This document shows, piece by piece, positions 26,326 through 59,068 of a DNA stretch of 64,000 bases (its first letter is position 1; every line of letters starts with the position of its first letter). Origin of the DNA: Minisyncoccia bacterium. Its GTDB lineage: Bacteria > Patescibacteriota > Minisyncoccia > Phycocordibacterales > UBA9973. Below the pieces are notes generated by a model. That model was not told the origin of the DNA. It ran no database searches and saw only the letters and a list, made by a program, of their open reading frames with translations. The stretch is from the NCBI GenBank assembly GCA_965656375.1, contig CBFHKH010000001.1, forward strand, positions 514,845 through 578,844, written 5' to 3'. The position numbers and the translations under genes are program-made.

Positions 26326-27840
26326 TTAAAGTGAACGGAAATAATAATTTTCATCCGTGCCCTTTTGCATTTCGACAACCTTTGCCTTTAGCCCATCTTT
26401 ATAATCTCTGAGGTACGACCGAACACCTACATCACTGATCGCTAAGATCTGAAGTGCAAGTAATCCTGCATTCGCTGCGCCATCTATAGCCATCGTTGCC
26501 ACTGGCACGCCGGCTGGCATCTGAACGATAGAAAGCATGGAATCGAGGCCAATCATCGAATTGGATGATTTTACCGGTACACCAATCACGGGTAATGTAG
26601 TATTCGCAGCAATCATTCCTGGCAGATGTGCAGCGCCACCAGCACCAGCAATAATAACTTTTATACCCTTTCTTATAGACCCTTCGGCATATTTGGTTAA
26701 TCTCGCAGGCGTGCGGTGCGCAGATATAATTCCAAGTTCAAAGGTAACCCCTGCCGCAGTTAAAACTTCAGCAGCTTTTTGCATAATGGGTAAATCGCTT
26801 TCGCTACCCATCACGATACTTACTTCTGCTCCTTCAATACGTGTGCGGATTTTTACCAGTGCGTTAAGGATTGGATCACCTTTTGTTGCAGAGTATACGG
26901 CAACATCATCCGTAAATTCACGGCCAACAACTTGCTCGTACAACTCTTCATAACGGTTACTGATGCCTTCGATGAATCCCTCATCGAATTCTGGCATTAC
27001 TTCTCCTGGTTTACCAGAAAACCCATTTTCTATCAGATATTGGCGAACAAACTCTTTGGAAAGTGCTTTTGGTTCCTCTCCTTTTGCGAATGCTTCATTG
27101 TATCCTTCCTTATACCAGTACCGGCTACTATCTGGCGTATGGATTTCATCTATCAGATAAACTTTTCCATCCGGCCCTTTGCCAAACTCATATTTAGTAT
27201 CCACTAATATGAGATTCCGATCATCTGCCATCTTTTGCCCTCTGGCAAAAAGTTTTAATGCTTTTTCGCTAATAAATTTCCATTCTTCTTCTGTAGCCAG
27301 CCCTCTTTCAACAATTTCTTTTGCTGAAATGTCTTCATCATGCTTTCCTCCATCAGCTTTAGTTGTAGGAGTAATTAGTAGTTGGGGGAATTTTTCATTT
27401 TTCTTCAAACTAAAATCTAATGCATATTCCCACGGTAACTTTTTCCTTTCCTGGTAATAATTCCGGTAGAAAGAACCGGTATTAAAAGCACGAACAATTA
27501 CTTCAATTTTAAATGGCACTGTTTTGCGCCAGATTGAGGTGTTCGCAGTCGGAACAGCAAGCATGCAGTTAGGAATGATATCCTTTGTTGCGTTCATAAA
27601 ATGTGCAGAAATTAAATTTAATACTGCACCTTTATTCTCTACCTGAAATGGCAGTATGTAGTCGAAGGCAGAAATACTATCTGTAGTTTCTGCAACTATT
27701 ACCTCGCCAACGGTGAAGACTTCCCTTACCTTGCCTTTGTAATAGCCAGTCTGGCCGGGATATTTATTATTTTGCATAATGTTTGGTAAACCAATTGTTC
27801 TATGTGGAAGGTTAACCCACTTTTTTATTTTGAATTTCAC
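26326..27840 (-). CDS. purCE: bifunctional SAICAR synthetase / AIR carboxylase (PurC-PurE fusion)
   Basis: N-terminal approx 300 aa SAICAR-synthetase-like; C-terminal approx 160 aa PurE (SIVMGSESDLPIM...AHRTP...IIAGAGGAAHLPGM). Confidence 0.8.
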   Translation of the reverse strand: MKFKIKKWVNLPHRTIGLPNIMQNNKYPGQTGYYKGKVREVFTVGEVIVAETTDSISAFDYILPFQVENKGAVLNLISAHFMNATKDIIPNCMLAVPTANTSIWRKTVPFKIEVIVRAFNTGSFYRNYYQERKKLPWEYALDFSLKKNEKFPQLLITPTTKADGGKHDEDISAKEIVERGLATEEEWKFISEKALKLFARGQKMADDRNLILVDTKYEFGKGPDGKVYLIDEIHTPDSSRYWYKEGYNEAFAKGEEPKALSKEFVRQYLIENGFSGKPGEVMPEFDEGFIEGISNRYEELYEQVVGREFTDDVAVYSATKGDPILNALVKIRTRIEGAEVSIVMGSESDLPIMQKAAEVLTAAGVTFELGIISAHRTPARLTKYAEGSIRKGIKVIIAGAGGAAHLPGMIAANTTLPVIGVPVKSSNSMIGLDSMLSIVQMPAGVPVATMAIDGAANAGLLALQILAISDVGVRSYLRDYKDGLKAKVVEMQKGTDENYYFRSL

Positions 27841-27941
27841 TCACCATACAACATATTATGGGATAAAGCAAACACTCTACATGCATCAAAAAAGCATGTG
27901 CCATATTTCATGACACATGCTTCCAAAACATTTTAGATTCC

Positions 27942-29072
27942 TTATTTATACACAAAAGTATTCCCTGAAAATTTTGAAGTTATCAAAAGTTGCGATGTTG
28001 ACCTCTCTTCTATCACGCCAGCAACTCGGGCCTGTATTCCAAATTGCGTTGCGTGTGTGATAAATGAATCTGCTTCATTTGAATCAACTACAACAAGTGC
28101 ACCTTGTCCACAACTCCACTTTTCATACAAAAGCTCATCAGAAAATCCAGACCACCGGGCCATATCTGCCACAATTGAAGGGGGTTCCCACAAATTGTGT
28201 AACTTCGCTGAAAGTCCTTTCCTTTTTAAAACATCATCAAAGAATTTTGATTTAAAAGATCCACCGGAAAGATGGCAAATCAAATGCGGCTTGATGTAGT
28301 GCTCAAAATTATTATCTATGTTATACCAGCCATTAAGAGATGCAAGAAAGTAATCATACAGCACCGAAGGTTCAGCGATCTTTTCAACAAGCTCTTTTTG
28401 TTGCCACCACTCTGGGCCAAATTGCTTTTCCATTGTTGCTCGCACGGCAGATATACCGTTTGAACGAAAGCCATTTTCTTTCAAAGCAATAATAACTTGC
28501 CCTGAGGCTAACGTCTCACCGGTGATACGTTTATCAGGATGTATGATCCCAATCATAAACCCTGACCAATTGTATTTTAGTGTAGCAGCAGGATTCGGAC
28601 TTGAAACGCAGACACTGAGTTCTGCAGTTTCACCTTTGATGCATGCAAACTTACCTTTGTTTGCAACTTCTACCAATCCATCAAATAAAGCCTGTGCGGC
28701 TAAAAAGCTTTTGTCATCCTTTGTATCTCCAAGTTTTGAAACATCAAGCACATTAGAGAATACTACGGGCAACCCACCATTGCGGGTGATATCACCGCTT
28801 GTCATAGCACCAAGGTCGTATGCACTTTTTCTGTGGAAACAAGCCGCATCGCTCAGTAATACTTTCGTTCCATTACCATCAGGAGCTATAATCATCCGAA
28901 TATTCGGTAAATGATTAATGATACTGAAGGATATTTCTGAACGAAAATGATCGTCAGGCTTGTCTACATCTACCCATATCGAATTGCCATGGGTAGTTCG
29001 GGTTAGTTTACCCGCATAGACGCTAATCAAGTCTCCTAGAGGCAGATTAACGGGGTCTTTAATTTTGCTCAT
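27942..29072 (-). CDS. purM: AIR synthetase (PurM family)
   Basis: APDGNGTKVLL resembles the PurM DGVGTK motif; KGETAELSV and RSNGISAVR blocks are also present. Confidence 0.75.
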   Translation of the reverse strand: MSKIKDPVNLPLGDLISVYAGKLTRTTHGNSIWVDVDKPDDHFRSEISFSIINHLPNIRMIIAPDGNGTKVLLSDAACFHRKSAYDLGAMTSGDITRNGGLPVVFSNVLDVSKLGDTKDDKSFLAAQALFDGLVEVANKGKFACIKGETAELSVCVSSPNPAATLKYNWSGFMIGIIHPDKRITGETLASGQVIIALKENGFRSNGISAVRATMEKQFGPEWWQQKELVEKIAEPSVLYDYFLASLNGWYNIDNNFEHYIKPHLICHLSGGSFKSKFFDDVLKRKGLSAKLHNLWEPPSIVADMARWSGFSDELLYEKWSCGQGALVVVDSNEADSFITHATQFGIQARVAGVIEERSTSQLLITSKFSGNTFVYK

Positions 29073-29142
29073 ATTATTGTTTTAAGTTTTAAAAATAGTG
29101 ATTTTCCTTTACTTAACCATATTTCGTCTCTAAATGCAAAAA

Positions 29143-29172
29143 AAATTCCGTGGTCGTAATAACCACGGAATT
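29143..29172 (-). terminator. intercistronic hairpin between purL and purM
   Basis: CCGTGG-tcgtaataa-CCACGG with flanking A/T runs. Confidence 0.45.
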
Positions 29173-29194
29173 CCATGCTGTTCGCATTTTTCTT

Positions 29195-32100
29195 TTATTG
29201 AGACTCTACATCTTGGTAAAGCCAAAGGTACATATTCACGAATGCTTTTGCCCAGACTGGAGTTGTAAAATTCCAATCCTTTGGTTTGTATGGCAAATGA
29301 TCATTACTCGCCGATACCCGTTCGATGTGTGGCATCATAAATGTGTGACGACCATTTTCTGTACAAAGCCCGGCAATTGCATTTGGTGATCCATTCGGAT
29401 TGAAAGGATAGTCATCTGTTTTCCGCCCATTGCTATCTGCGTACTGTACGGCAACTAATCCCAATGACTCTATCCATTCACTATCGTAGTCTGGCAAAAA
29501 CAACTTGCCTTCACCATGAGCTGACCATGCAGGGAGTATAGAGCCCTCCATTCCACTAAACATAATGGATGTTGTATTTTCTGGTATCAACAAATTCACT
29601 GGACGATGCTCAAATATACCTGAATCATTATGGAGGAGCCGTGGCTTCTGTCCAAGTGATTCATCGAGCACACCAAGCAATGTCGCAACCTGAAAACCAT
29701 TACATACCCCAAATGAAAGCGTGTCTGGTCGGGCATAGAAATCATCAAACATCTTCTTCAATTTTTCATTGAATAAGATGCTCGCAGCCCATCCTTTACC
29801 AGATCCACCTACATCTCCATACGAGAACCCACCGGCAAATGCTATCACATTGAAATCTTTCAAATCATAGGCACCTTTGATAAGCTCGTTCATCTGGATA
29901 ACGGATACGCTAAATTGCTGTTCCATTCTTCCAAACATAAATGCAAGCTCGTGGTGACCATTTGTACCAGGAGCTGCTAAAACTGCAACCTTGAACTTTT
30001 TATCCGTTGGAATTTTTTGATCTTCGTCTGGATTGAAGGTGAGTTTACAATTTTGTCTGAAATGCAATTCCCTACTTAAAAGCTTATGAGGCATTCCAAG
30101 TTGTTTTTTTATTTGCTTGCCGGTCTCTCTAAACCATTCTCGTACATCACTTGCAAATGGAGAATATTTAGTATCCTTTCCATAAAAAGTAAAATACTTG
30201 GACGATGATTTCACAGAACCAATAATACTAGCTTTTAATCCTGTATCTTGTGCCATCTGTATGATCTCTTCATTTTGCGTACGCCTGCATTGCACAATTA
30301 CTCCAATTTCTTCGTTAAAATAAAAACTTGCATATTCAGTTTCTGTGGGATTCTGAACGTGAGCCTCTACCTGTGAAGCAATGGACATTTTTGCAATTGT
30401 AGGAAGTAACCCTCCTTTTATCTTTGGTGAACCTGCAAGGATCATATTGTCTTTGACTAAACGTTGCACCAATTCAAAAAGTGCTTTTGCTTTTTTAGGA
30501 TTTGCATCAGGAACCTCATTACCAGTTTCACCATGAGCTTCACATAGTGCACTACCTCCCATACGTCCTCTGTTCTCTTCAAGCTCAATAAGGATAAGAT
30601 CTGTTGATCCTTCTCCTCCTTTGAGCTCCGGAGTAATCCGGCTTCGAAAATTATCTAGATGAACATATGGCTCTAAAATAAATGTCGGGAAAGACATCAC
30701 TGCATTTCCGTCAAAATTAACAGAGAGCGACGAGCTATCCTTACCTCCATCTATTCCAAAGCCTACATCAGCAAGTGCATCTGTAATCGCACTGTATGCG
30801 CTATAGAGTCGTGCTTTCATACCTGGCTGTTTAAACGGCCACATCACATTTAAGCGTCCTTTCATCATTTCTATTCCACCAGGAATTTCTACAAATGAAA
30901 GTGTTGCGAGCATGTGTGCAACAGTCATCCGGGCTGTAGCTTTCTCATCGATGAGCATCGCCACTGGATTGCTGCGTGCGATAGTAGAAACCACGCCAGT
31001 TGTGCCGGTAAAACCATCTGACATAATTGCATACGGGCAAATGGGAAGTTGGTACTCCCCGCTCCGCGGCCCTTGCACAACTCGTCCACCGACGGAACCA
31101 TCGAAATGGTCAGTCATATAGCCAAGGAGCGCTACTCCGGGAATCTGAGCAACCTTTTTAAAATGCTCATCAATACACAGATCAGAAATTACAAATGGTT
31201 GAAATGTAAACTCAATCAAAGTATCGGTATACGTCTTCTGGGGAAGGCTTCCCAGGATTTCAGGCAATGTCAGTGAAACTGGAGTTGATCTATCACGTGA
31301 GTCAGAAACTACAATTTTTGCTGAATCATTTGTCTCTCCCAAAATCTCTATTGGGCATTCAAATTTTTTACAAATATCCTTGAATAACTCAAGGTTCTCG
31401 TTCTTAATAAGAATTCCATACAGTTCCTGTGCTTCCGCTATCCAGATTTCAGTTTGGGAAAGCGAAGAGTCCCCTATTTGCATTTTTGCAAGATCAATAG
31501 AGCCTCCTGACGGATTTGTCAGTTCAGTGATTACATTAGAAGCACCGCCTGCGCCTTGATCATGTACTGCTTCTATAGGATTTTTATCTCCCATATATAC
31601 GCAATACTCGATCACGTTGTACGCACTGCGACCCATTAATGGTTCTCCTCTTTGCACTGATGCAAAATCAAGATCTGACTTGTTGTCGCCAGTATTCATA
31701 GAGCTTGCAGCTCCACCACCAACACCAATACGCCGTGTAGCACCACCGATTCGTACAATCATCATACCTGGTATAGCATCCATCTTGTCTTTTGCTAAAG
31801 CCCTAATAGAACCTACCGCACATGTATAGATGATAGGTTTTATAGATTCAAACCTTTGTCCTCCTGGCAAAATAACTCCAAGTGAATCATTACCAAAAAG
31901 TAATGTCGGTTCTCCAAACGGATTACCATAACCCGAGGCACCCTTTATTGATCCTACCAACACTTCGGTAGGGGTTGCCATATTTTTAGGATATGACCAT
32001 AGAGGAGCTCCGTGGATCCGAAGTTTTCCCGTCTGAAAATATACTCCACCAAATCCGATAAGTGATCCGCAGCCAATAGCAGCAATATCACGCAATCTTC

Positions 32101-32986
32101 CACCAACTCCCGTAGCAGCACCAGGATATGGACTGATTAGAGTGGGGTGATTGTGTGTTTCTGCTGTAGCAGTGTGGTTCATAGGGATCTGTACTAGTCG
32201 GTATACACCATCTGACCCAGGTAAGAACATTTCAACCATGCTCCCTTTAAGGATACCTCCGTTGTCTTTAAATGCTTTCACGCTCCCATGCGGATTCTTT
32301 TTTAAAGTTTGTTTTACCATATGAAAAAGAGTTTCTTTCATTTCTTCTCCACCGATGATAAATCTCCCTCCAAATTCCCAGTGTCGGCAATGACTGCTGT
32401 TACCCTGGGCAACCTGCATCAGTTCTACAATTGTAGGATTACGTTTATAGTCAGATACAAACAAATTATAATAATAATTCATATCAAACTCGTCCATACC
32501 CATACCGTATTGTTTATTTACCTCTTTAAACATGTCTATCCCTCCATGTATGAGATCAACGTCGAACGTTTTCTCTACATGAAATAAAGGAATCAATGTT
32601 TTTGGTAGGGCCGTGTACACAGACTCGGTCATACGATCATACGGCGGGCTCTCACCATCAGTGCAGGAGTACGCAGTAAATTGTTCGATCCTGAGGATAT
32701 TTTTCAATCCAAAAGATATACAAATTTTACGTAACTTTTCTGATTCTGGCGTTTCGAATCGCAGATTCGGTCCAACAAAAAAATTGTAAGTCCCACCCAC
32801 AGTAGATGTTCGTTCAGTTAGTACAGATGGATTGAGCATCACTGCATGTTCACTTGTCACAGTTGGATTTAATATCCACTTGAGACGCAAGATGTCAGTT
32901 GAATTCAAATTACCATTTGATTCAACCACAAAAATACATGGCTGATTGTCTCCTCCATTAAAGAAGAATGTGTTTTGAGTCTTCAT
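29195..32986 (-). CDS. purL: phosphoribosylformylglycinamidine synthase, single-chain large form
   Basis: 1263 aa with N-terminal SHCRH, central FGAM-synthase domains and a C-terminal class I glutamine amidotransferase motif GVCNGFQ. Confidence 0.93.
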   Translation of the reverse strand: MKTQNTFFFNGGDNQPCIFVVESNGNLNSTDILRLKWILNPTVTSEHAVMLNPSVLTERTSTVGGTYNFFVGPNLRFETPESEKLRKICISFGLKNILRIEQFTAYSCTDGESPPYDRMTESVYTALPKTLIPLFHVEKTFDVDLIHGGIDMFKEVNKQYGMGMDEFDMNYYYNLFVSDYKRNPTIVELMQVAQGNSSHCRHWEFGGRFIIGGEEMKETLFHMVKQTLKKNPHGSVKAFKDNGGILKGSMVEMFLPGSDGVYRLVQIPMNHTATAETHNHPTLISPYPGAATGVGGRLRDIAAIGCGSLIGFGGVYFQTGKLRIHGAPLWSYPKNMATPTEVLVGSIKGASGYGNPFGEPTLLFGNDSLGVILPGGQRFESIKPIIYTCAVGSIRALAKDKMDAIPGMMIVRIGGATRRIGVGGGAASSMNTGDNKSDLDFASVQRGEPLMGRSAYNVIEYCVYMGDKNPIEAVHDQGAGGASNVITELTNPSGGSIDLAKMQIGDSSLSQTEIWIAEAQELYGILIKNENLELFKDICKKFECPIEILGETNDSAKIVVSDSRDRSTPVSLTLPEILGSLPQKTYTDTLIEFTFQPFVISDLCIDEHFKKVAQIPGVALLGYMTDHFDGSVGGRVVQGPRSGEYQLPICPYAIMSDGFTGTTGVVSTIARSNPVAMLIDEKATARMTVAHMLATLSFVEIPGGIEMMKGRLNVMWPFKQPGMKARLYSAYSAITDALADVGFGIDGGKDSSSLSVNFDGNAVMSFPTFILEPYVHLDNFRSRITPELKGGEGSTDLILIELEENRGRMGGSALCEAHGETGNEVPDANPKKAKALFELVQRLVKDNMILAGSPKIKGGLLPTIAKMSIASQVEAHVQNPTETEYASFYFNEEIGVIVQCRRTQNEEIIQMAQDTGLKASIIGSVKSSSKYFTFYGKDTKYSPFASDVREWFRETGKQIKKQLGMPHKLLSRELHFRQNCKLTFNPDEDQKIPTDKKFKVAVLAAPGTNGHHELAFMFGRMEQQFSVSVIQMNELIKGAYDLKDFNVIAFAGGFSYGDVGGSGKGWAASILFNEKLKKMFDDFYARPDTLSFGVCNGFQVATLLGVLDESLGQKPRLLHNDSGIFEHRPVNLLIPENTTSIMFSGMEGSILPAWSAHGEGKLFLPDYDSEWIESLGLVAVQYADSNGRKTDDYPFNPNGSPNAIAGLCTENGRHTFMMPHIERVSASNDHLPYKPKDWNFTTPVWAKAFVNMYLWLYQDVESQ

Positions 32987-37502: not shown

Positions 37503-40500
37503 TTACTTATTATCTTTTTCTTTTATACCACGTATTTGTTTTGCAAACTCTGCTTCCATAACTACAATTGAGTCCAACAAGAATGCTTTTATGTCTTTAT
37601 CTTTATTCTCAGGAATTTCTGTATATTCACGATATTTTTCATCTATATACGCCTTTTCAGGATCTCCTGTCTTAAGCGTAAAGTAACCCTTAAAATTAAA
37701 GTATCTTTCTACTCCCTTTCGATACGATTTCATTAATCGTGGGTCACTCATTACTCGATCGACAAGTTCTTTTGTAAGAGCAGTGTTTTCTCTGAGTTCT
37801 TCAAGTGTGACTTTTGTTTGCTTTTTCTTTACCTCATCGTGTGCATGCAATAAGGCAGACATGAATTCCTTCATTGACTGATATCTATCCTTTGGTTCAG
37901 GACTCATGCCTTTTTTGATTACTTCCTTGATTGGAGATGGGACTGTACCCGGGAACCTCATTTTTCCTGATAAATGAATTTTTTTGTATTCTTCCATTCG
38001 TTCAGATGCTTTCATATCCTTAGTTTCCTTTTCAATATCGTGAGGCCACTTATTTGTGATAAACCTATACAAGTTAGCTGAAGCTGCATAGACATCAACT
38101 GTTTTATCGAAACTTTTCTTTGCCTCAAATAATTCTGGGGCCATAGTAAATCTATTTCCACGAGCATAATCTCGCATTGATGTTTTTTGTGAACCTTGAA
38201 CAATAGCTGCACCATCAAGATCTGTTATTTTCAAATTATTTCTACTTAAGATTATATTACTTGGAGAAATATCTACATTAATTACACCCGCATCGTTGAG
38301 TGAATCAACTGCTTGAGATGTTTTCATAGTTGTCGCGATTGAATCATCAAGAGACAATCTTCTATTATTTAAATATGTTTGAAGATCCATATCTCCTGCT
38401 TCATATACTCTGTATGTTTTACCGTTTACTTCAAAAGTATCCATTGGTAATAATACATTTCGATTCTTATATCCCTTCTTTTTCAAGAAAGATTCAGGCG
38501 TATTATCTCCCCAGTAATGAGATTCCTTTAGTCCATTGAAATAATCTGTGTCTATCTCTTTTATAACTAAAAGTTTGTCTTGTCCTGGCTTATAACCCAA
38601 AGAAACCTTTCCTGTTTCAGTATTAGATAGTACAAAGTCTTTTGAGATTATATATGCACCTACACTTTCTTTATTTTCTGAATTTATAACTTCATTTACG
38701 TTTTTAACCCTTGGCTTTGTATCATAACCTACTATTACTTCATCAGAAAAATTATTTAACTGTTGCGGCAAATTGGAAGCAGGTTGTTGCCGTATCTTTC
38801 TAAGTTCTTCGATTGCTTCAGGTTTTCCTGAGCGTGCATCACGCATTAATTTCCCTTCAACTTGATATCGCTTGAGTCCATCTAGAAGAGGTCTCATCTT
38901 CGTTATGACCATATCGCCTTTACTATCGAGTTTATATTTAATTCCAAGCCAGCCTATTGCTTTGCGATAATAAGGACTATCCTTTCCAATTTTTTCACCT
39001 GCTTCCCAACTATCTAGAGTTCGATTTATGATGTATTCGAATGTTTTTTTCAATTTTTCCTGAGTTTCCAGATCATCATAGTCTATGGCATCACCGTCTT
39101 CCATTGTTAGCTTTCGAATTTCATCGTCAAACGCACTGAATCCTTTGTCCCACTGCTCAACAGGGGCAAGGCCTGATTTAAACGCATCAATAGCTCGACG
39201 AGACGAGGTAAAGAGTCGTGTAGTAGTTCCAGCAAAACCAAGTGCTTTTTTATTATCACCTCTTGCACTTATTATTGCTTGTCCAATAGAGATATCCTCT
39301 CCACCCTGGAGGTTGTCTATATAGCCACCAATACCCGCAAACATACTTGATCTGTAGGCAGAGTTAGCTCCACTTGAAACCATACTGTTCGTTCTATGAC
39401 GACCGATAACACTGAGATACTGGAAGAGTCTCGTTCCTATATGGACGCCTGGGTACTTCTGGTATGACTCTGGATCCCAATCAAGCTGACCAAGGAGTGC
39501 ATCAACTTCTGGATTCTCTTCAAACTTATCGATAAATGTTTGGATATATCTTGGATCAATACCTTTATTGTCAGCGTCATTACTTACCATTATCAAGTCT
39601 GGTGCGTCTTTACCTCTTTCGTGCTGGCGTACGAGTGTTGCATCTGAAAGTATCTTTCTGATTCTTCCGATTTTTGCTTCATCATTTGGCAATGCTTCAT
39701 ACATGACTCTGACATTCATGTCAGGATAGTCAGTTTTAAACTTTTCGATCGCAGCCATCGTCTCATCTGCATTCAACGGATTGCCATCCTTATCATTCTC
39801 GGGATGATTCACATAGAGAACAATTTCAAAATCTTCTGGCTTAGCAGTTTGGTAGGTATAATTCTTTAACGATTCGTAGATATTATTTCCCTCTTGGTGA
39901 CCTGCGACAGGGATACAGATAGAAATCTTGCAGTCCTTGCCCATCTTTTCTGTTGATTGCGCGAGTTTCTCTATTCTCTCTCTGTATTCTTTATCTTGCT
40001 TTTCTAGATAAAGAGCAATTTCTTCAAAGTGATCCAATTTTGCGTTTGGATTTTCTTTCAAAGTCTTTGATCTCAACTTTTCGAATAATGCTAATTTCTC
40101 TGCAGGAGTAGCACCACCAGCGTAATTTAAATAGTATTCTATTTTGTTATTAACCGGAACGATCTCTGCAGCCTTAGGCTTTTTGTATCCGAGCGGTTCA
40201 AGTGGAGTACGAGGAACAAGGGGTATAAAGTATGGCGGTTCAGTATCAATTGGGATCTCGAGAGTGTTTATCGGGATCTCTTTTGGACCAGGGACAGTAA
40301 TCGGACCGTGGTCAGGACCTTCGTACGTAGCAAGTTCTCTGACATGCAGACGTCCATCTGCATCTGTACCGAATGTCTCAGAGACTTCGGCAAAGCGTCC
40401 TTGGAATACGGCATGACCTTTATCATCTACACTAAAGAATAATTTTCCTACCTCACTATTTGGATCGATAATAGCGTTACCGTTCGCATCTATATCAACT

Positions 40501-42716
40501 TCGAATGGATGCATCTGAGTATCTCTCGTTAGTGAGAGGAACATCTTGAGTCCACCATTTTTGACTTTTTCTTGAGCATCCACTGAAAGACTATCATGGA
40601 ATGAACCACCTTTTGTCATATGAGAAACATTGAACACAATCTTGCCATCAGCATTGACCCCTGTATTATTCTCTCCGCCCCACCAGAGTTTCAATTCATT
40701 CTTATCAAAAACTGGCTTTGGGGTATCGTTGTCATACCATCCGTCACGAGCTATGTGTGTAGTCTGGTCTGGATGAGAATCTATATATTCATTCGGATTC
40801 ATTGTCGTATCTCCTGCTCCTTCAATCAAAGATGTTTCATTATTAGCAATAATTCCATCTTCCCCAAGTCTATTGATGGACGCTTGATCCAAAGCACCGT
40901 TTGCATCTGTATGGAGTTCTATATGATCAGAGATGACATCATCACCACGCATAATGTTGAAAGTACCATCCCCATTATCTATCATCGTTGTTCCCTCTGG
41001 AAGCTTGAAGTGGCTTGGTATATCAAAACTCTTACTAGTAAGAATTTGGTCCTGCGCATTCTCCATAGAGATATGCTGGTTACCTGAAAGGAGATGATCT
41101 AATGGAGTCTGTACATGATTTGATGTACCTTCCCCTGTTATGCGATGATATATTCCTTCGAAAACTCCTTCTTTATGTCCACCCCACAGTCCATCAGCAA
41201 GAGCAATACTTTCTTGCACTGCAGCTCCTATAGTTACACCCATGAGTACAGTTTTACCCATCTTGAGCGCAGCACGGCGCAATTTTAAATTGCTGAACGC
41301 TTTATCTTGTTTTGTGATGCCCTTTTCACCGCCAAGGAATGCTTTTTCTGTAGTATCAACTTGTTTTGCTAAATAAGACTCAAAGGTTTCTCCATCTGGT
41401 AAACCATCTTTCAATGTAGCATTTACTTGTTTCGCTAACTCAACTTTTGCACGAGCAAGCAAGATAACCATTTCAGTGTGTTCTTTTTCAACATTTGCAG
41501 GGTTTGAATATCGAATGAGATCGATTTTCTTTTGGCTTGCAAGTGACTCACGAGCTTCGATATTGCCAATGTGACCTAAAACTGACTCTAATTCACTTTG
41601 AGAGATTTGCTTTGCTACATCATTACCATCTTCATCTTTTGTAAAAAGTGATTCTCGGAGTGCCTTCATTAATACTTCTGCACTTTCTGTCTGATATGCA
41701 TATTTCTCCATCGATTCACGACGTGGGCTGTCTGCTTCTATCACACCGCCTTTTGCCATTTCACGGCCGTGCTGTCTTCGCTCTTCAGCAAGGCGCTGCG
41801 ATTCATTTGCAGCGGCAAGTACACCAGATGCAACTGCCGTACCTCCAAATGTCACCATGTGTGAGACTTTGCTTTTCATGAACATCTTTCCTGTCCCTGC
41901 TGCTACAGTATAGGCAAGAGCAACCGCTGTCGATAATGTCGCAGGATTGATGAATCTTCCAATCTTAGTTTTTTTGATTCCGGTGACAGTCTTGTCGATC
42001 CAGTTACTTTTCGCTTCTGTCTTAATACTACTTTTTGCCTTGCCGACAATTACATTGAAATCAAGATCAAGCTCTTCGAGCTTTGCCCCGTGTTCTACAG
42101 CAAGTTTGGCATTTTTAGCCATTTCAAAAAGATTACTTGCGTATATATTTGAACCCGTAACAAAAGAGTCTCCTATTGTATTAAAAATTTTAACCTTTTC
42201 TGAATTGAATGAATCTTCATTGATATCACCTTTTGCGTAATCAGAAATAAGTTTCTTTATATCTGCTTTTGTCTGGGCTGTCTTTGGATCAGTTTCTTCG
42301 AGTGTTTTTTTCTCTTCTCCAACTTTCTTGTTAACTGCTTCTTCATATTCTGACGCAAAGCGCTCTGTGATAGCTTCCATCGCTCTATCATGGGATTGTT
42401 TATCTTTCTCTACTGCAGAGTAAATATTATCTGACTTGAAGATTTCATCTCGAGCTTTGTCTAATGCTTTCTGTCTATAATACCCATCCATGTAGGTATG
42501 CTTCCAAAGTTTTTTCCAGAAACCAGCTTTGCCTTTTGCTTCAGTCATTGCTGCATCAGCAGCATCGCGAGCTTCCATTTCGGCCAAATGAGTCGCATCA
42601 ACAATTACGAGCTTTTGTTTTAAAGCTTCTAATGCTTTATTTTTTATTTCCTCACTTGTTTGCGGATTTTCAATTGTATCCGGCTTACTATATAGAGTAG
42701 GTGATTCAATTGGCAT
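37503..42716 (-). CDS. giant membrane protein (1737 aa): N-terminal coiled-coil/TM region, GT-A glycosyltransferase-like domain, C-terminal eukaryotic-like protein kinase domain
   Basis: GT2-like start ISICIPVAG...NIYESL and DxD motif SNDADNKG. Kinase subdomains are present: LLVIKEI (VAIK-like), VINVDISPSNIIL (HRDxKPxN-like), KITDLDG (DFG-like), TMAPELF (APE), DVYAASANLY. Confidence 0.8.
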   Translation of the reverse strand: MPIESPTLYSKPDTIENPQTSEEIKNKALEALKQKLVIVDATHLAEMEARDAADAAMTEAKGKAGFWKKLWKHTYMDGYYRQKALDKARDEIFKSDNIYSAVEKDKQSHDRAMEAITERFASEYEEAVNKKVGEEKKTLEETDPKTAQTKADIKKLISDYAKGDINEDSFNSEKVKIFNTIGDSFVTGSNIYASNLFEMAKNAKLAVEHGAKLEELDLDFNVIVGKAKSSIKTEAKSNWIDKTVTGIKKTKIGRFINPATLSTAVALAYTVAAGTGKMFMKSKVSHMVTFGGTAVASGVLAAANESQRLAEERRQHGREMAKGGVIEADSPRRESMEKYAYQTESAEVLMKALRESLFTKDEDGNDVAKQISQSELESVLGHIGNIEARESLASQKKIDLIRYSNPANVEKEHTEMVILLARAKVELAKQVNATLKDGLPDGETFESYLAKQVDTTEKAFLGGEKGITKQDKAFSNLKLRRAALKMGKTVLMGVTIGAAVQESIALADGLWGGHKEGVFEGIYHRITGEGTSNHVQTPLDHLLSGNQHISMENAQDQILTSKSFDIPSHFKLPEGTTMIDNGDGTFNIMRGDDVISDHIELHTDANGALDQASINRLGEDGIIANNETSLIEGAGDTTMNPNEYIDSHPDQTTHIARDGWYDNDTPKPVFDKNELKLWWGGENNTGVNADGKIVFNVSHMTKGGSFHDSLSVDAQEKVKNGGLKMFLSLTRDTQMHPFEVDIDANGNAIIDPNSEVGKLFFSVDDKGHAVFQGRFAEVSETFGTDADGRLHVRELATYEGPDHGPITVPGPKEIPINTLEIPIDTEPPYFIPLVPRTPLEPLGYKKPKAAEIVPVNNKIEYYLNYAGGATPAEKLALFEKLRSKTLKENPNAKLDHFEEIALYLEKQDKEYRERIEKLAQSTEKMGKDCKISICIPVAGHQEGNNIYESLKNYTYQTAKPEDFEIVLYVNHPENDKDGNPLNADETMAAIEKFKTDYPDMNVRVMYEALPNDEAKIGRIRKILSDATLVRQHERGKDAPDLIMVSNDADNKGIDPRYIQTFIDKFEENPEVDALLGQLDWDPESYQKYPGVHIGTRLFQYLSVIGRHRTNSMVSSGANSAYRSSMFAGIGGYIDNLQGGEDISIGQAIISARGDNKKALGFAGTTTRLFTSSRRAIDAFKSGLAPVEQWDKGFSAFDDEIRKLTMEDGDAIDYDDLETQEKLKKTFEYIINRTLDSWEAGEKIGKDSPYYRKAIGWLGIKYKLDSKGDMVITKMRPLLDGLKRYQVEGKLMRDARSGKPEAIEELRKIRQQPASNLPQQLNNFSDEVIVGYDTKPRVKNVNEVINSENKESVGAYIISKDFVLSNTETGKVSLGYKPGQDKLLVIKEIDTDYFNGLKESHYWGDNTPESFLKKKGYKNRNVLLPMDTFEVNGKTYRVYEAGDMDLQTYLNNRRLSLDDSIATTMKTSQAVDSLNDAGVINVDISPSNIILSRNNLKITDLDGAAIVQGSQKTSMRDYARGNRFTMAPELFEAKKSFDKTVDVYAASANLYRFITNKWPHDIEKETKDMKASERMEEYKKIHLSGKMRFPGTVPSPIKEVIKKGMSPEPKDRYQSMKEFMSALLHAHDEVKKKQTKVTLEELRENTALTKELVDRVMSDPRLMKSYRKGVERYFNFKGYFTLKTGDPEKAYIDEKYREYTEIPENKDKDIKAFLLDSIVVMEAEFAKQIRGIKEKDNK

Positions 42717-45915: not shown

Positions 45916-45962
45916 TTAAAAAAACGTAATGGGTAATTACGTTTTTTTAAATGTCCACCCGC
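45913..45962. terminator. long perfect hairpin (22-bp stem) acting as a bidirectional terminator next to the tRNA 3' end
   Basis: TGGACATTTAAAAAAACGTAAT-gggta-ATTACGTTTTTTTAAATGTCCA. Confidence 0.6.
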
Positions 45963-46027
45963 TTGGATTCGAACCAAGGACCCCAGAGGTATAAGCTCTG
46001 TGCTCTAACCAACTGAGCTACGGGTGG
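45952..46027 (-). tRNA. tRNA-Ile with apparent anticodon UAU
   Basis: CCACCCG-TA-GCTC-AGTTGGTTA-GAGC-A-CAGAG-CTTATAC-CTCTG-GGGTC-CTTGG-TTCGAAT-CCAAG-CGGGTGG-A; positions 34-36 read TAT. Confidence 0.7.
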
Positions 46028-52306: not shown

Positions 52307-52418
52307 AGGCCTATGGTAACATATGTTACATAACTATGCAAGAGTTGTTACATTTCCTATTTATTAGGATGCTATGAAATAAGCCTTTTTTAGAAATATA
52401 ACTTGTTATTTCTAACAA

Positions 52419-52816
52419 TGTGGAACTGGGCGGAGTTGAACCGCCATGCAAAAGATGTTCATAGATGAATCTACATGTGTATCATGTTCGATTGGGTTTA
52501 AATATGAAAGCTAGAGAACACGCAATATACTTTCACACCGAGCTTTTCATTGTCGAGATCTCTCGCAAGCGGTGAGAGATCCGTAACCCGATAAATTATG
52601 CCTCTCCTCTGTATCGGATGTCGAGAAGAGAGACACCTGACTGGCTTAAATTAAGCGAGTGCAGGAGCGAAGTTGAAACCAAATGCGTTAGCAAATGGTG
52701 ACTTCACCATAGCGACTTTGTTTGCACGTAGTCTTTTGGAAGTAGTTTAGCGAGATACCTCCGCACTCGACACGCACATCTATGAGGACGAACCTTTGTC
52801 GAAGCCCGTCAGTCCC
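52419..52816 (-). ncRNA. ssrA: tmRNA (SsrA)
   Basis: 5' GGGACUGACGGGCUUCGAC... pairs with 3' ...GGCGGUUCAACUCCGCCCAGUUCCACA (tRNA-like T-arm and acceptor). The internal frame GCU AAC GCA UUU GGU UUC AAC UUC GCU CCU GCA CUC GCU UAA gives a tag near ANAFGFNFAPALA. Adjacent to smpB. Confidence 0.8.
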
Positions 52817-56112: not shown

Positions 56113-56124
56113 CTTAAAAATAAA

Positions 56125-56155
56125 AAATCCCTTCAATTGAAGGGATTTTTTATTG
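56125..56155. terminator. bidirectional terminator
   Basis: AAATCCCTTCAATTGAAGGGATTT with flanking T/A runs. Confidence 0.65.
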
Positions 56156-59068
56156 GGCTGGTTCGTCAGATGCCGGACTCTCCACCGGTGGAACAGCGGT
56201 TCCTTCTGAGCCTCCATCAGCTTCTGGAGCGATTTGATCTTCTACACACGTACTTCCATCGAGATGATAGCCAGATGGAACCGCTGCCTGATCGCCATCG
56301 ATGTTTGGACACATATCTGTAGCTTGTGGGGTGTCTCCACCTCCGCCGTTTCTCGTATTTGTATTATTGCTGAGCATCTGTAGAAGTTCTGCTTTTGTTA
56401 CACAAACATCCTCAAGACAAAGTTTCTTTGTATGCACTTCGCCAAAGAATACAATTTCTATACCATTGCCTATATCTGCTAGGAATTCTTTAATGAGAGA
56501 ACCAAGTGAGGCTTCGTTTGTAGTATCAAGTGATGAGAGTCCTTCGATCCTAATATTCATCTCCCTCACCGCACCCACCACATATGGCATGAGACCACTC
56601 ATGTTTAAGAACTTGCGGGTGGTGCCATCGATCCAGGTATGATCTGTAACGAGGTCTGGGAATTGAGTAGCGACTTCTTGAGCGATGAATCCGTACTGGA
56701 GTGGTGCGGATGTGCCTTCAGTGAGCCAGTGGTATGAGACGGGGTTGAGGGATGAGATCTTGGAAAGGAGATCTGATGTTGAGAGTGAGGTAACATCTTT
56801 CTTGAGGGTGAGGTCTGAACCGCAGGTTGGGGCTCCAGTGTTTGCATTGAAGTCACAGACTGAGTTTGTGTCTTGTAATCTCATGAGTGTGGTGCCGTCA
56901 GTGATGGATGAGGAGCCTACGTGGAGGAGGAAGCCGGGGGTTTGCTGGTTGATGCCGACGTTACCGTTTAACATGATGTTTTGTGAAGCAACTGAGGCGT
57001 TCTGCTGGATGTAGATTGGGGAGGCTGTTTGGTCGCCGGTGTAATCTGCTCGATCGAGTGAGTTAATGAATATTTGGTTTGAAGCGGTTGTAGTATACCT
57101 ACCTGCTACTGCACCAATTGCTACATTTGCAGTACCTGTTGTATTGTTAATTAAACTTCTATCTCCAATTGCCGTATTAGCATGAGCCTCGTTGTTGTAA
57201 AGAGTGTTTCGTCCAACTCCTACATTCTCAGATCCAGAAACATTGAATCTTAATGATTCTGCTCCGATGGCTATATTTGCTGTACCGTCAATATTAGCAA
57301 GGAGGGCACTCCGTCCAAATGCAGCATTAGCTTGACCTACTGTATTAGCTTTTAGAGCACCAGTACCAAATGCTGCATTATTAATAGATCCATTTACAAG
57401 CAATGCTTCATAACCGAAACTAGTACTATTTGTTGTTAGATCAATATAACCACTTTTCAAATTATTAGCTTTAAACATCAACCCCACATTATTAGTAGTA
57501 CCGATAAAATTAGTTCCTGGTGTTGTCCCTGCATTACCTGTTAAGGCCCATCCAGTTGGAAGCGTTATCCATGTTGGAGGAAGTCCTGCCCCTCCGCTTG
57601 TGAGAATTTGCCCTGCTGTACCAGGCAGATTATTCGGCATGAGTGCACCAGAGAAATTAATGTTGCCTGTGACATTGAGCTTTTGTCCGCCTGCAGTTGC
57701 ACTTCCGATGGTAACGTTACCTCGAACAGTATGCGAAGGGCTTAATCCCAAGAATATTTCTCCATCCCCACCTGCACCGTTACCAAGACCCGAGACGATA
57801 TATATGTTACCTCCCGCAGCTCCTCCGGTACTACCTGCATTACCTGCTTTTAGAGCAGCATAACCAGCAGAACCGCCTGATGTACCTCCGCCACCATTTC
57901 CCCCTTGAATTTCGACATATCCTCCAACCCCACCAAATGTAGTTCCCAAACCGCCATCTCCACCGAGAATAGTAATGCGTCCTCCGGCTCCGCCGATTCC
58001 TGTTGTTGGTGATCCTGTTATATTACCGCCATTCCCTGCGAGAATATCTATTGCGCCTGCATTGCCTCCGCTAACAGTCCCGGTATTATATGATGTTGCG
58101 CCGCCTGCACCACCTTGTATTTTGAGGGGCGAGCTAGCAGTAGTACCGTCTGAACCTGATACTGCACTTTGAGCAGCTTGGAATACATGGAGTAGGGCTG
58201 TCGGACTTGTTGTTCCGATACCAACATTGCCACCAATTCCAGGCACAAGTGCTATATGCGTCGATGCACCAGAGGTGATTGAACCGACGTTCGGAGTGTT
58301 CGCGAAATAGATACCGTAATTATTCGTCGCTGCAGTAAGACCATTTATATACAGGCCATACTGATCTGTAACACTACTACCACCAGATACGGAAACATCG
58401 CGCAGATCAATGTGTTTTAAAATCGTTGTGATTGCACCACCGGTCACCGAAGGACCTGTCTGATACTCGACCTGGTTTGCTACTGTGCCTGATGCTGCTC
58501 CGTGATTACTTTGAGTCGCCAGACTGACAATACTGCTCGGGAGATTAGTGATTCCAGATAATGTAACTGCAATATTCTGGCCAAGGATCGCTCCACCAGC
58601 ACCCGCGCCGCTTCCCGCAGTCAATCCTATTTTTGATCCGTATAAAACGCCACCGTTCATACTGCTTACAGTGGCCGCTATATTTGAAACAGTACTTCCG
58701 TTGCTTGTGATGGTTCCGGCGATGTCTAGTTTAGAGCTAGGGTTTGTCACTCCTATCCCTACATTGCCTGTATTGTAGTAAATATCCGAGCCATTTGTGA
58801 TCCACTGGCTACTACCTGAAAGAGCTACCCAGCTCGTCACACTTCCGTCTGTCATGAGGAACTTGCCAGTATTACCTGTTTGATCAGGAAGAATCTGAAC
58901 GAAACAATTCGTATCTCCAGGCGCACAGGAAGGATCAAGAGTCTCTCCTGCCTGATAGGGAGAGCCTGGTGGTGTAGCAAAAACAGAAATATATGCACCA
59001 AAAAGGAGTACGAAGAGAAACCCAGTCAAAAGTTTTGGATAGCGAAATGTAGATTTCTTCATATACAT
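56150..59068 (-). CDS. secreted glycine-rich tail-fibre-like protein with C-terminal intramolecular-chaperone (peptidase S74-type) domain
   Basis: Signal peptide; about 600 aa of Gly/Ala/Asn/Thr-rich repeats (GGAGGATSYNTGTVSGGNAG..., NAAFG/NIAIG/NVGVG repeats). C-terminal ...DLTLKKDVTSLSTSDLLSKISSLNPVSYHW...YGFIAQEV... resembles tail-spike autoproteolytic chaperone domains. Confidence 0.7.
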   Translation of the reverse strand: MYMKKSTFRYPKLLTGFLFVLLFGAYISVFATPPGSPYQAGETLDPSCAPGDTNCFVQILPDQTGNTGKFLMTDGSVTSWVALSGSSQWITNGSDIYYNTGNVGIGVTNPSSKLDIAGTITSNGSTVSNIAATVSSMNGGVLYGSKIGLTAGSGAGAGGAILGQNIAVTLSGITNLPSSIVSLATQSNHGAASGTVANQVEYQTGPSVTGGAITTILKHIDLRDVSVSGGSSVTDQYGLYINGLTAATNNYGIYFANTPNVGSITSGASTHIALVPGIGGNVGIGTTSPTALLHVFQAAQSAVSGSDGTTASSPLKIQGGAGGATSYNTGTVSGGNAGAIDILAGNGGNITGSPTTGIGGAGGRITILGGDGGLGTTFGGVGGYVEIQGGNGGGGTSGGSAGYAALKAGNAGSTGGAAGGNIYIVSGLGNGAGGDGEIFLGLSPSHTVRGNVTIGSATAGGQKLNVTGNINFSGALMPNNLPGTAGQILTSGGAGLPPTWITLPTGWALTGNAGTTPGTNFIGTTNNVGLMFKANNLKSGYIDLTTNSTSFGYEALLVNGSINNAAFGTGALKANTVGQANAAFGRSALLANIDGTANIAIGAESLRFNVSGSENVGVGRNTLYNNEAHANTAIGDRSLINNTTGTANVAIGAVAGRYTTTASNQIFINSLDRADYTGDQTASPIYIQQNASVASQNIMLNGNVGINQQTPGFLLHVGSSSITDGTTLMRLQDTNSVCDFNANTGAPTCGSDLTLKKDVTSLSTSDLLSKISSLNPVSYHWLTEGTSAPLQYGFIAQEVATQFPDLVTDHTWIDGTTRKFLNMSGLMPYVVGAVREMNIRIEGLSSLDTTNEASLGSLIKEFLADIGNGIEIVFFGEVHTKKLCLEDVCVTKAELLQMLSNNTNTRNGGGGDTPQATDMCPNIDGDQAAVPSGYHLDGSTCVEDQIAPEADGGSEGTAVPPVESPASDEPAQ

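Follow-up and report, generated by a model that had tools for sequence, protein, structure and literature searches.

The closest described system to the gene reported here is the S74 subfamily of MAT fibres of Bdellovibrio bacteriovorus, e.g., Bd3182 (Caulton et al. 2024, PMC10769870). These fibres are displayed on the cell surface, bind prey glycans, and carry an S74 domain with the motif SDxxxK at which they cleave themselves; in Bd3182 the cut is made at the serine of this motif (PMC10769870). All 21 MATs share a β-rich N-terminal domain of ∼130 residues after the signal peptide, and loops of the GNVGIG..P...L type have been described for MAT fibres and for MyRF (PMC10769870). Patescibacteria are not among the other taxa listed in that paper. 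Here we describe a fibre gene in a 64,000-nt stretch of DNA from a Minisyncoccia bacterium (GenBank assembly GCA_965656375.1, contig CBFHKH010000001.1, positions 514,845 to 578,844; hereafter the window). We consider it, with somewhat better than even confidence, to encode a surface fibre that a Parcubacteria-type Patescibacterium exports through Sec and that forms homotrimers and processes itself; the fibre would bind a host cell and be diversified by cassette exchange. Residue numbers refer to the 972-residue product, and window coordinates of its parts are collected in Table 1.

A sequence-only reading of this DNA had proposed an S74-like domain near the C-terminus of the protein from a block (DLTLKKDV...LNPVSYHW...YGFIAQEV) that corresponds to residues 752-800, and profile searches bear this out. 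The three checks proposed along with that reading all gave results positive for it or compatible with it. Pfam Peptidase_S74 (PF13884) matches residues 751-807 over profile positions 1-57 of 58 (E 5.6e-14, 52.6 bits against a gathering cut-off of 22). Ser751 and Lys756 are invariant and Asp752 nearly so among 35 aligned C-terminal regions (alignment A2), and a [ST][DE]xxx[KR] motif is present in 70 of 74 S74-bearing homologs. Because a sequence search of the PDB returned a single, marginal match (MyRF, E 0.71), a fold search was needed. In Foldseek, an AlphaFold2 model of residues 687-972 (mean predicted local distance difference test score, pLDDT, of 75, with 85-96 in the core) matched the MyRF ICA domain (7dc3) with probability 1.0 and the endosialidase chaperone (3gw6) with probability 0.98. 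In addition, 181 predicted viral structures match at E≤0.001; about half of the best 50 are nameless, and those with names are auto-processing chaperones, S74 proteins or tail fibre and tail proteins. The proposed likeness to tail fibres is further supported by PHROGs tail fibre, tail spike and virion protein families, which match residues 538-845. Structure prediction was thus confident for the S74 core; a full-length AlphaFold2 monomer, built from a 43-row fragment alignment, reached a pLDDT of 52.9 and is uninformative for the shaft. We conclude that the fibre is a bona fide S74-domain protein, a domain call that is in itself ordinary.

The fibre gene is a mosaic. It occupies a slot in the gene order HD - β-CASP - fibre - rplT - rpmI - infC - truB, and the same slot with an S74 fibre is found in three related loci, L003 (GCA_040384425.1), L004 and L005/L006, whose fibres are 952, 794 and 1246 residues long. 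The β-CASP, L20, L35 and IF3 proteins of these flanks are 80-96% identical to those of the window, and the HD and TruB proteins 54-69%. Shared parts were mapped with a 30-residue identity profile and by blastn of the locus. Relative to L003 and L005, the flank is homologous and so is the fibre up to residue ∼105; homology is then lost and is back exactly at residue 836; relative to L004 it extends to residue 442 and begins again at residue 836. The corresponding blastn breakpoints lie at window positions 58751-58757, 57746 and 56563. Residues 106-835, which include the S74 catalytic core, are thus replaced as a unit with respect to L003 and L005, and the part in common with L004 reaches only to residue 442. 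The two arms on either side, residues 1-105 and residues 836-972, are the conserved parts of the fibre at this syntenic position, and they diverge like the flanks, at ∼72% nucleotide identity. A motif of the form GNVGI(G/N)xxxPxxxL occurs three times in the protein, at residues 101, 280 and 702, and each copy coincides with a module border. Replacement of a cassette between conserved arms, with breakpoints at GNVGIG...P...L motifs, is a new observation.

Modules within the cassette are also found in other proteins and differ in codon usage. P0005 and P0003 have residues ∼280-520 in common with the fibre, at up to 93% identity; P0003 in addition has residues 660-835 in common, and P0007 and P0010 residues 700-835. 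The GC content at third codon positions (GC3) is 0.29-0.49 over residues 1-270, 0.04-0.29 over residues 480-650, 0.51-0.71 over residues 660-835 and 0.24-0.38 over residues 836-972. Taken as one block, residues 701-835 have a GC3 of 0.60, to be compared with a mean of 0.364 (sd 0.064, maximum 0.519) in 650 windows of 135 codons from 35 ORFs (open reading frames) of the window. The codon usage of the fibre gene is a patchwork, and that of its S74 block is foreign. The lowest value, 0.04, occurs in a 45-codon window of 17-residue repeats (residues 541-585; 57314-57445, minus strand), beside the block that reaches 0.71, an extreme contrast in composition for one gene.

The fibre belongs to a family, newly defined here, whose members combine an S74 core with a conserved module at the N-terminus and a conserved sub-module at the C-terminus. 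The window protein has all of the parts, namely a signal sequence, the N-module, the S74 core, and a C-x4-9-C hairpin sub-module followed by a Pro/Glu/Thr-rich tail. Among 65 N-module proteins of at least 400 residues, local HMMs detected the S74 core in 62 and the C-terminal sub-module (residues 841-905) in 59, and the family parts co-occur in 58 (about 90%). For the subset found through the N-module alone, the corresponding numbers were 34 and 31 of 37. A search of 1.84 billion representatives with the N-module profile gave 3690 matches, a figure that overstates the family because many of them match nothing but a repeated motif, QTGNxGKxLTTDGxxTxW (profile positions 45-72), which contaminates the search. 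Among the best 150 matches, ∼55 are single and lie at the extreme N-terminus of proteins that are 93-2241 residues long; a homologous-protein search with the N-terminal 118 residues returned only short fragments. The contaminating motif (GTAGQILTSGGAGLPPTW) is a widespread repeat that occurs twice in the fibre, at residues 62-80 and 483-501 (58829-58885 and 57566-57622, minus strand), and many of the proteins found in this exhaustive profile search have 5-20 copies of it.

The sole hydrophobic stretch of the protein, residues 11-35, follows a Lys/Arg-rich n-region, and residues 11-30 are modelled as a helix by AlphaFold2. The Ala at position -1 of the predicted cleavage site is invariant in 16 relatives (alignment A4), as are Tyr38, Gly41, Thr43, Leu44, Pro46, Cys48, Pro50 and Cys55 of the N-module, whose consensus, with the predicted cut at the slash, reads xFA/(TPP)GSPYxPGETLDPxCxPGxxNCxV. 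N-modules of the syntenic orthologs are 76-86% identical. Residues 1-31 could alternatively be an uncleaved signal anchor. All eight cysteines of the fibre fall into four short-range pairs (48/55, 738/749, 884/889 and 920/941), three of them conserved, which fits an extracytoplasmic protein; together with the signal sequence they are compatible with the secretion proposed in the sequence-only reading.

The C-terminal sub-module, at which DNA homology resumes, is 73-80% identical among syntenic orthologs, and Cys884 and Cys889 are each at least 90% conserved. It occurs in two subtypes, which are followed by acidic tails rich in Pro, Glu and Thr. The canonical endosialidase chaperone domain reportedly comprises ∼150 residues. 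The first helix of the sub-module may thus be the normal helical half of such a domain, and the disulfide hairpin, the last helix and the tail look lineage-specific. The Cys-bounded module in the tail, D-x-C-P-N-I-x-G-x-Q-x-x-x-P-x-G...C (56246-56311, minus strand), is not covered by any Pfam family and recurs in secreted proteins of Saccharibacteria (L001 463-1155 and L002 813-4868): a protein of 230 residues, and a SpaA-like/PG_binding_1 protein of 1351 residues that has two copies. A scan of genome contigs with the whole protein found only these two Saccharibacteria loci, and the part in common is the small Cys-bounded motif.

A second member of the family, P0186 (635 residues), was found through the N-module profile; its NCBI record places it on a contig 840,184 bp long. 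Since P0001, the NCBI entry for the window fibre, and the window FtsH are on a contig of the same length, we take P0186 to be, very probably, the product of a second fibre gene of this genome, located outside the window; none of ten further family members checked was on the 840,184-bp contig. The two proteins are 63% identical over the first 100 residues and 51% over the last 135, their shafts are unrelated, and P0186 has the other subtype of the C-terminal sub-module. Over fibre residues ∼705-838 they are nevertheless 100% identical (96% over residues 701-838), whereas the next best relative reaches 75%. The near-identical block is the high-GC3 S74 block. The simplest reading of this pattern is that gene conversion between the paralogs has homogenised it.

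Two further arrangements of fibre genes were seen. In two samples (L008 8001-12755 and L009 4977-9731), P0007 (1584 residues), a paralog of another type, is found at a second conserved position among housekeeping genes, TatD - fibre - rpsF - ssb; the sample of L008 is also the one that yielded the syntenic ortholog P0004. A related metagenome-assembled genome (MAG; GCA_040384045.1, L007 1-8824) has five tandem fibre-like genes encoding 752, 717, 454, 386 and 579 residues. Two of these have S74 and one has the Gly-rich module of the fibre at up to 93% identity; the cluster is either a cellular one or a phage fragment.

Table 1. Parts of the fibre gene and its terminator region, with coordinates in the window
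Feature	Window coordinates	Strand	Basis or remark
Whole fibre ORF	56150..59068	-	972 residues from the first ATG; uninterrupted
Signal sequence, residues 1-31	58976..59068	-	K4, K5, R9, K12; hydrophobic L13-F30; V-F-A31 then T32
Family-specific N-module, residues 32-100	58769..58975	-	TPPGSPYxxGETLDPxCxPGxxNCxV (C48-C55 loop), then QTGNxGKFLxTDGSxTSW and QWITNGSDIYY
Replaceable cassette, residues 106-835 (shaft, tip and S74 catalytic core)	56564..58753	-	blastn; identity profile
Junction motif 1, GNVGIGVTNPSSKL, residues 101-114	58727..58768	-	Left cassette breakpoint relative to L003 and L005
Junction motif 2, GNVGIGTTSPTALL, residues 280-293	58190..58231	-	Start of the module common with P0003/P0005
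Gly-rich module, residues 294-470 (GGxGG turns)	57659..58189	-	76-93% identical to P0005 and P0003, whose N-termini differ
Seven 17-residue repeats, N-x-A-x-G-x-x-A/S-L-x-x-N-x-x-G-x-x, residues 546-660, beta-roll-like	57089..57433	-	Reading of the sequence; AlphaFold2
Junction motif 3, GNVGINQQTPGFLL, residues 702-715	56924..56965	-	Start of the S74 block common with P0186, P0003, P0007 and P0010
Pre-cleavage strands with C738-C749 loop, residues 716-750	56819..56923	-	Would form the C-terminal tip of the mature fibre (last residue G750)
Catalytic motif S751-D-L-T-L-K756 (SDxxxK)	56801..56818	-	Alignment A2; predicted scissile bond G750-S751
S74 chaperone/protease core, residues 751-836	56561..56818	-	Pfam, AlphaFold2, Foldseek; high-GC3 block together with residues 660-750 (0.51-0.71)
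Conserved C-terminal sub-module, residues 837-905	56354..56560	-	Helix, C884-x4-C889 hairpin, helix
Tail, residues 906-972	56153..56353	-	Gly linker, Cys-bounded mini-module C920...C941 (CPNIDGDQAAVPSGYHLDGSTC), acidic Pro/Glu-rich end
Palindromic hairpin with flanking A and T runs	56119..56154	.	Between the fibre stop codon and rplT; 94-97% identical in L003-L005

These observations can be combined into a model of how the fibre is made and used. The signal sequence would take the chain across the membrane and be removed by the predicted cleavage after Ala31. Three C-terminal S74 chaperone domains would associate and nucleate folding of the β-rich shaft that precedes them. By analogy with endosialidase, T5 pb1, phi29 gp12 and Bd3182, Ser751, activated by Lys756, would then cut the G750-S751 bond, which would expose the tip of the mature fibre and release a fragment of 222 residues comprising the chaperone core, the C-terminal sub-module and the acidic tail. 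The self-cleaving C-terminal block of the sequence-only reading is retained here as an S74 domain, though not as a short terminal piece. The mature fibre (residues ∼32-750) would stay on the cell by means of its conserved N-module and bind a structure on the host-cell surface. That the N-module is the handle holding the mature fibre on the cell is likely by comparison with the MAT N-domain, which is unrelated to it and for which the same attachment role has been proposed (PMC10769870); it is also the weakest step of the model, with no classical anchor visible. The arms would be inherited vertically, the cassette would be exchanged at the GNVGIG...P...L junctions and so diversify specificity, and the S74 block would be homogenised between paralogs by gene conversion. 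Host binding is proposed because of the MAT precedent, the recombination pattern, which is typical of receptor-binding proteins, and the episymbiotic life of all cultivated Patescibacteria (10.1101/2024.11.25.624915). In a wider and more tentative form, which we hold to be less likely than not, Patescibacteria would possess a fibre family of their own, derived from phages, trimeric and self-cleaving, that determines the host cell to which they attach. Host range would be reprogrammed as in phages, through exchange of the cassette of shaft, tip and chaperone at a fixed locus with constant arms, and gene conversion would keep the chaperone block identical among the paralogs of a genome.

The genomic neighbourhood is cellular. 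On one side of the fibre lie truB, infC, rpmI and rplT, the last convergent with it. On the other side, the gene for the β-CASP metallo-β-lactamase RNase is on the same strand, its stop codon is 24 nt upstream, and the HD protein gene follows; the fibre is probably co-transcribed with the RNase gene. The hairpin at the 3' end of the fibre gene has the appearance of a bidirectional terminator that would serve both it and the convergent rplT. Genes for FtsH, RecG, purL, purC-purE, tmRNA and tRNAs are further out. The FtsH of the window, which the 840,184-bp contig also carries, shares 85-89% identity with proteins assigned by name to the Patescibacteria group, Candidatus Nomurabacteria and Candidatus Paceibacterota; the organism is assigned on this basis to the Parcubacteria/Nomurabacteria-like Patescibacteria, in agreement with the small-genome organism surmised earlier. 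No phage structural genes were found near the fibre, and ten unannotated ORFs gave no phage structural match. A prophage context was rejected, the neighbourhood being one of housekeeping genes and conserved in the three related loci. The earlier suggestion of a domesticated phage fibre can hold only in an evolutionary sense because the gene lies in this conserved housekeeping slot. A tblastn search of the 64-kb window found no template repeat or second fibre copy that would indicate a diversity-generating retroelement; a reverse transcriptase was not searched for systematically.

The ORF predicted in the sequence-only reading was confirmed on the minus strand from its first ATG. An alternative start, ATG 59062, gives the NCBI protein P0001, which begins at the second ATG two residues later (970 residues) and is otherwise identical. 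Because this identical protein is on the 840,184-bp NCBI contig and collinear relatives exist, an assembly artefact is excluded. Collapse of repeats was likewise considered and rejected: no DNA tandem repeats were found in the fibre region, and BLASTP of the protein against itself gave zero self-matches. For the same two reasons the long Gly/Asn/Thr/Ala repeats that had been described are mostly compositional. The composition itself was correctly seen (G 15.8%, T 10.8%, A 9.5%, S 9.2%, N 7.8%), but long exact repeats are not present. Just one repeat is clear at the protein level; its unit has 17 residues, and its seven copies start at N547, N564, N581, N598, N615, N631 and N648. This region (residues 546-660) aligns with the Bdellovibrio S74 fibre and with PHROGs tail spike and virion proteins, and forms regular strand pairs, at low confidence, in the AlphaFold2 model. 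NCBIfam yielded no model for the fibre family.

Several points weigh against a cell-bound, host-binding fibre. We infer the trimerisation, cleavage, surface retention and host binding of this protein, and the episymbiosis of the organism is assumed from that of cultivated Patescibacteria (10.1101/2024.11.25.624915). A sortase motif, a second transmembrane segment and a lipobox were not seen in the fibre sequence, and SLH, LysM and peptidoglycan-binding domains had no Pfam match in it; because no recognisable anchoring device was found, the cleaved fibre could simply be released. Pfam and NCBIfam detected no known receptor-binding or lectin domain, and the full-length monomer model does not establish the fold of the shaft. 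Residues preceding the predicted cut are conserved within a sub-family and not hypervariable. A released fibre could be a secreted trimeric enzyme of the tailspike-depolymerase type that degrades host or biofilm polysaccharide. S74 domains frequently occur on depolymerases, endosialidase (3gw6) among them, the predicted cleavage of the signal peptide and the missing anchor would suit such an enzyme, and phrog_4636 ('tail spike') matches residues 550-694. However, Pfam and NCBIfam results contain no glycosidase or lyase domain, and a strongly conserved N-module on unrelated shafts looks like a common attachment handle, as in MAT fibres, so that a depolymerase is unlikely. We find it similarly improbable that the protein is a surface fibre unrelated to host recognition, for example an envelope- or S-layer-associated structure or a device for self-aggregation or abiotic attachment. 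The export signals would fit such a structure equally, as would the housekeeping neighbourhood and the probable co-transcription with the β-CASP RNase gene; but the cassette is replaced wholesale between genomes with FtsH 90% identical and codon usage is mosaic, which is what one would expect if the molecule recognises a partner and is under pressure to diversify, and not if it were an unchanging part of a structure.

If the protein were instead a tail fibre or spike that an integrated or remnant phage, or a tailocin, adds to its virion in the cytoplasm, this would account for the PHROGs tail fibre and tail spike matches, for an S74 domain typical of phage fibres and for the several tandem fibre-like genes in the related MAG. 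A signal sequence and paired cysteines are not expected of fibres assembled in this way, and the gene ends in a putative terminator common with rplT; three other related loci have it at the same place among housekeeping genes, and phage genes are absent there. Moreover, scans of 2.9 million viral contigs, which were limited to patterns and so give no proof of absence, yielded no confirmed relative, whether for the N-module, for the Gly-rich module or for the protein as a whole. That the protein is a virion component is very improbable. We give as little credence to an S74 domain that is retained but uncleaved, with the full-length fibre working intact or the domain a relic. Cleavage of the fibre is a prediction, and a long conserved sub-module and tail after the core would be odd in a part to be discarded. 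Against this, the catalytic Ser and Lys are invariant, the core is strongly conserved (100% between paralogs), and every SDxxxK S74 protein tested self-cleaves, Bd3182 included (PMC10769870). A self-processing surface fibre that recognises a host remains the reading we favour.

Four features elsewhere in the window are recorded here. A tRNA-Ile with anticodon TAT (UAU) lies at 45953-46027 (minus strand); bacteria normally read AUA with a modified CAT tRNA, and a UAU anticodon is unusual. An ORF of 1737 residues (37503-42716, minus strand) has a C-terminal Ser/Thr protein kinase as its only recognisable domain (residues 1367-1615), and its ∼1300 N-terminal residues are unannotated. Genes for de novo purine synthesis, a large purL and a fused purC-purE, are at 26326-32986 (minus strand) on this contig of ∼0.84 Mb, which is notable in that nucleotide synthesis is absent from many Patescibacteria. 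The tmRNA (52418-52816, minus strand) encodes a 24-residue tag peptide, ANKVAMVKSPFANAFGFNFAPALA.

We know of no hosts for most Parcubacteria. Type IV pili have been implicated in host binding by cultivated Patescibacteria, and the abstract of one report calls the mechanisms largely unknown. An exported, self-processing fibre family with an N-module, an S74 core and a C-terminal sub-module provides concrete candidates for host recognition, whose cassettes turn over between genomes otherwise ∼90% identical in FtsH. The fibre locus lends itself to typing in metagenomes, and the types could then be tested for correlation with hosts that co-occur. If the fibres do set the host, the locus would be a host-specificity determinant readable from sequence in a phylum in which almost all hosts are unknown, and the theme of a phage fibre recruited by a cell-attacking bacterium would reach beyond Bdellovibrio into another lineage, a very large one. 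Should the adhesin role prove mistaken, the gene product would be an S74 'tail fiber domain-containing protein' of the ordinary kind, of interest for the way it has recombined. The definition of the family, the locus with its cassette and the chaperone block common to the paralogs are new observations, and they make the host-recognition hypothesis testable.

The name 'tail fiber domain-containing protein' is the one that NCBI gives to homologs P0011, P0018, P0045, P0090, P0230 and P0390 from Patescibacteria/Paceibacterota MAGs, and it is a domain label only. The literature searched contained no paper on these homologs and none linking S74 or intramolecular chaperones with Patescibacteria or the CPR, and searches on tail fibres, adhesins and episymbionts retrieved no Patescibacteria paper that mentions tail fibres. 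Among known systems, trimeric autotransporter adhesins of the YadA family resemble the fibre in the short Asn/Gly/Ala repeats of a β-roll-type shaft, and some fibre homologs match YadA_head (PF05658). The fibre itself has no YadA_head match and no C-terminal β-barrel anchor (Pfam, E≤1), and its repeat period is 17 residues as opposed to 14-15. MyRF (myelin regulatory factor; ICA domain, 7dc3) is a membrane-bound transcription factor of eukaryotes, and its cleavage detaches the N-terminal trimer from a transmembrane anchor at the C-terminus; the fibre, in contrast, has no transmembrane segment after its S74 domain. With the phage chaperones of MEROPS S74 (endosialidase K1F, 3gw6; phi29 gp12, 3gud; the T5 L-shaped tail fibre, 4uw8) the fibre shares the Pfam family, the SDxxxK dyad, the fold, the position of the domain at the C-terminal end and the expected role, which is to trimerise and fold the fibre and then cut itself off. 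It differs from them in being cellular, with a signal sequence, no adjacent virion genes and an additional tail of ∼70 residues. The fibre is neither a trimeric autotransporter nor a virion protein.

The nearest counterparts are the Bdellovibrio MAT fibres. The fibre lacks their ∼130-residue N-terminal domain and has an unrelated Cys-loop module of ∼70 residues instead: its N-terminal 200 residues show no similarity to the N-terminus of the Bdellovibrio S74 fibre P0091 (best E 0.28, to an unrelated motif), and N-module searches retrieved neither P0091 nor P0075. Unlike MAT fibres it also carries a conserved sub-module and an acidic tail after the S74 core, and its producer belongs to another phylum, the Patescibacteria. 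Beyond these differences, residues 552-848 align with P0091 at 31% identity (E 2e-21), and the overall plan is that of a MAT S74 fibre, with a signal peptide, a long Gly/Thr/Asn-rich fibre of ∼1000 residues and a C-terminal S74 domain with SDxxxK. As in MAT fibres, which are made by a bacterium that lives on other bacteria, the gene is chromosomal and the protein is a mosaic, with a constant N-terminal end, a variable remainder and loops of the GNVGIG..P...L type.

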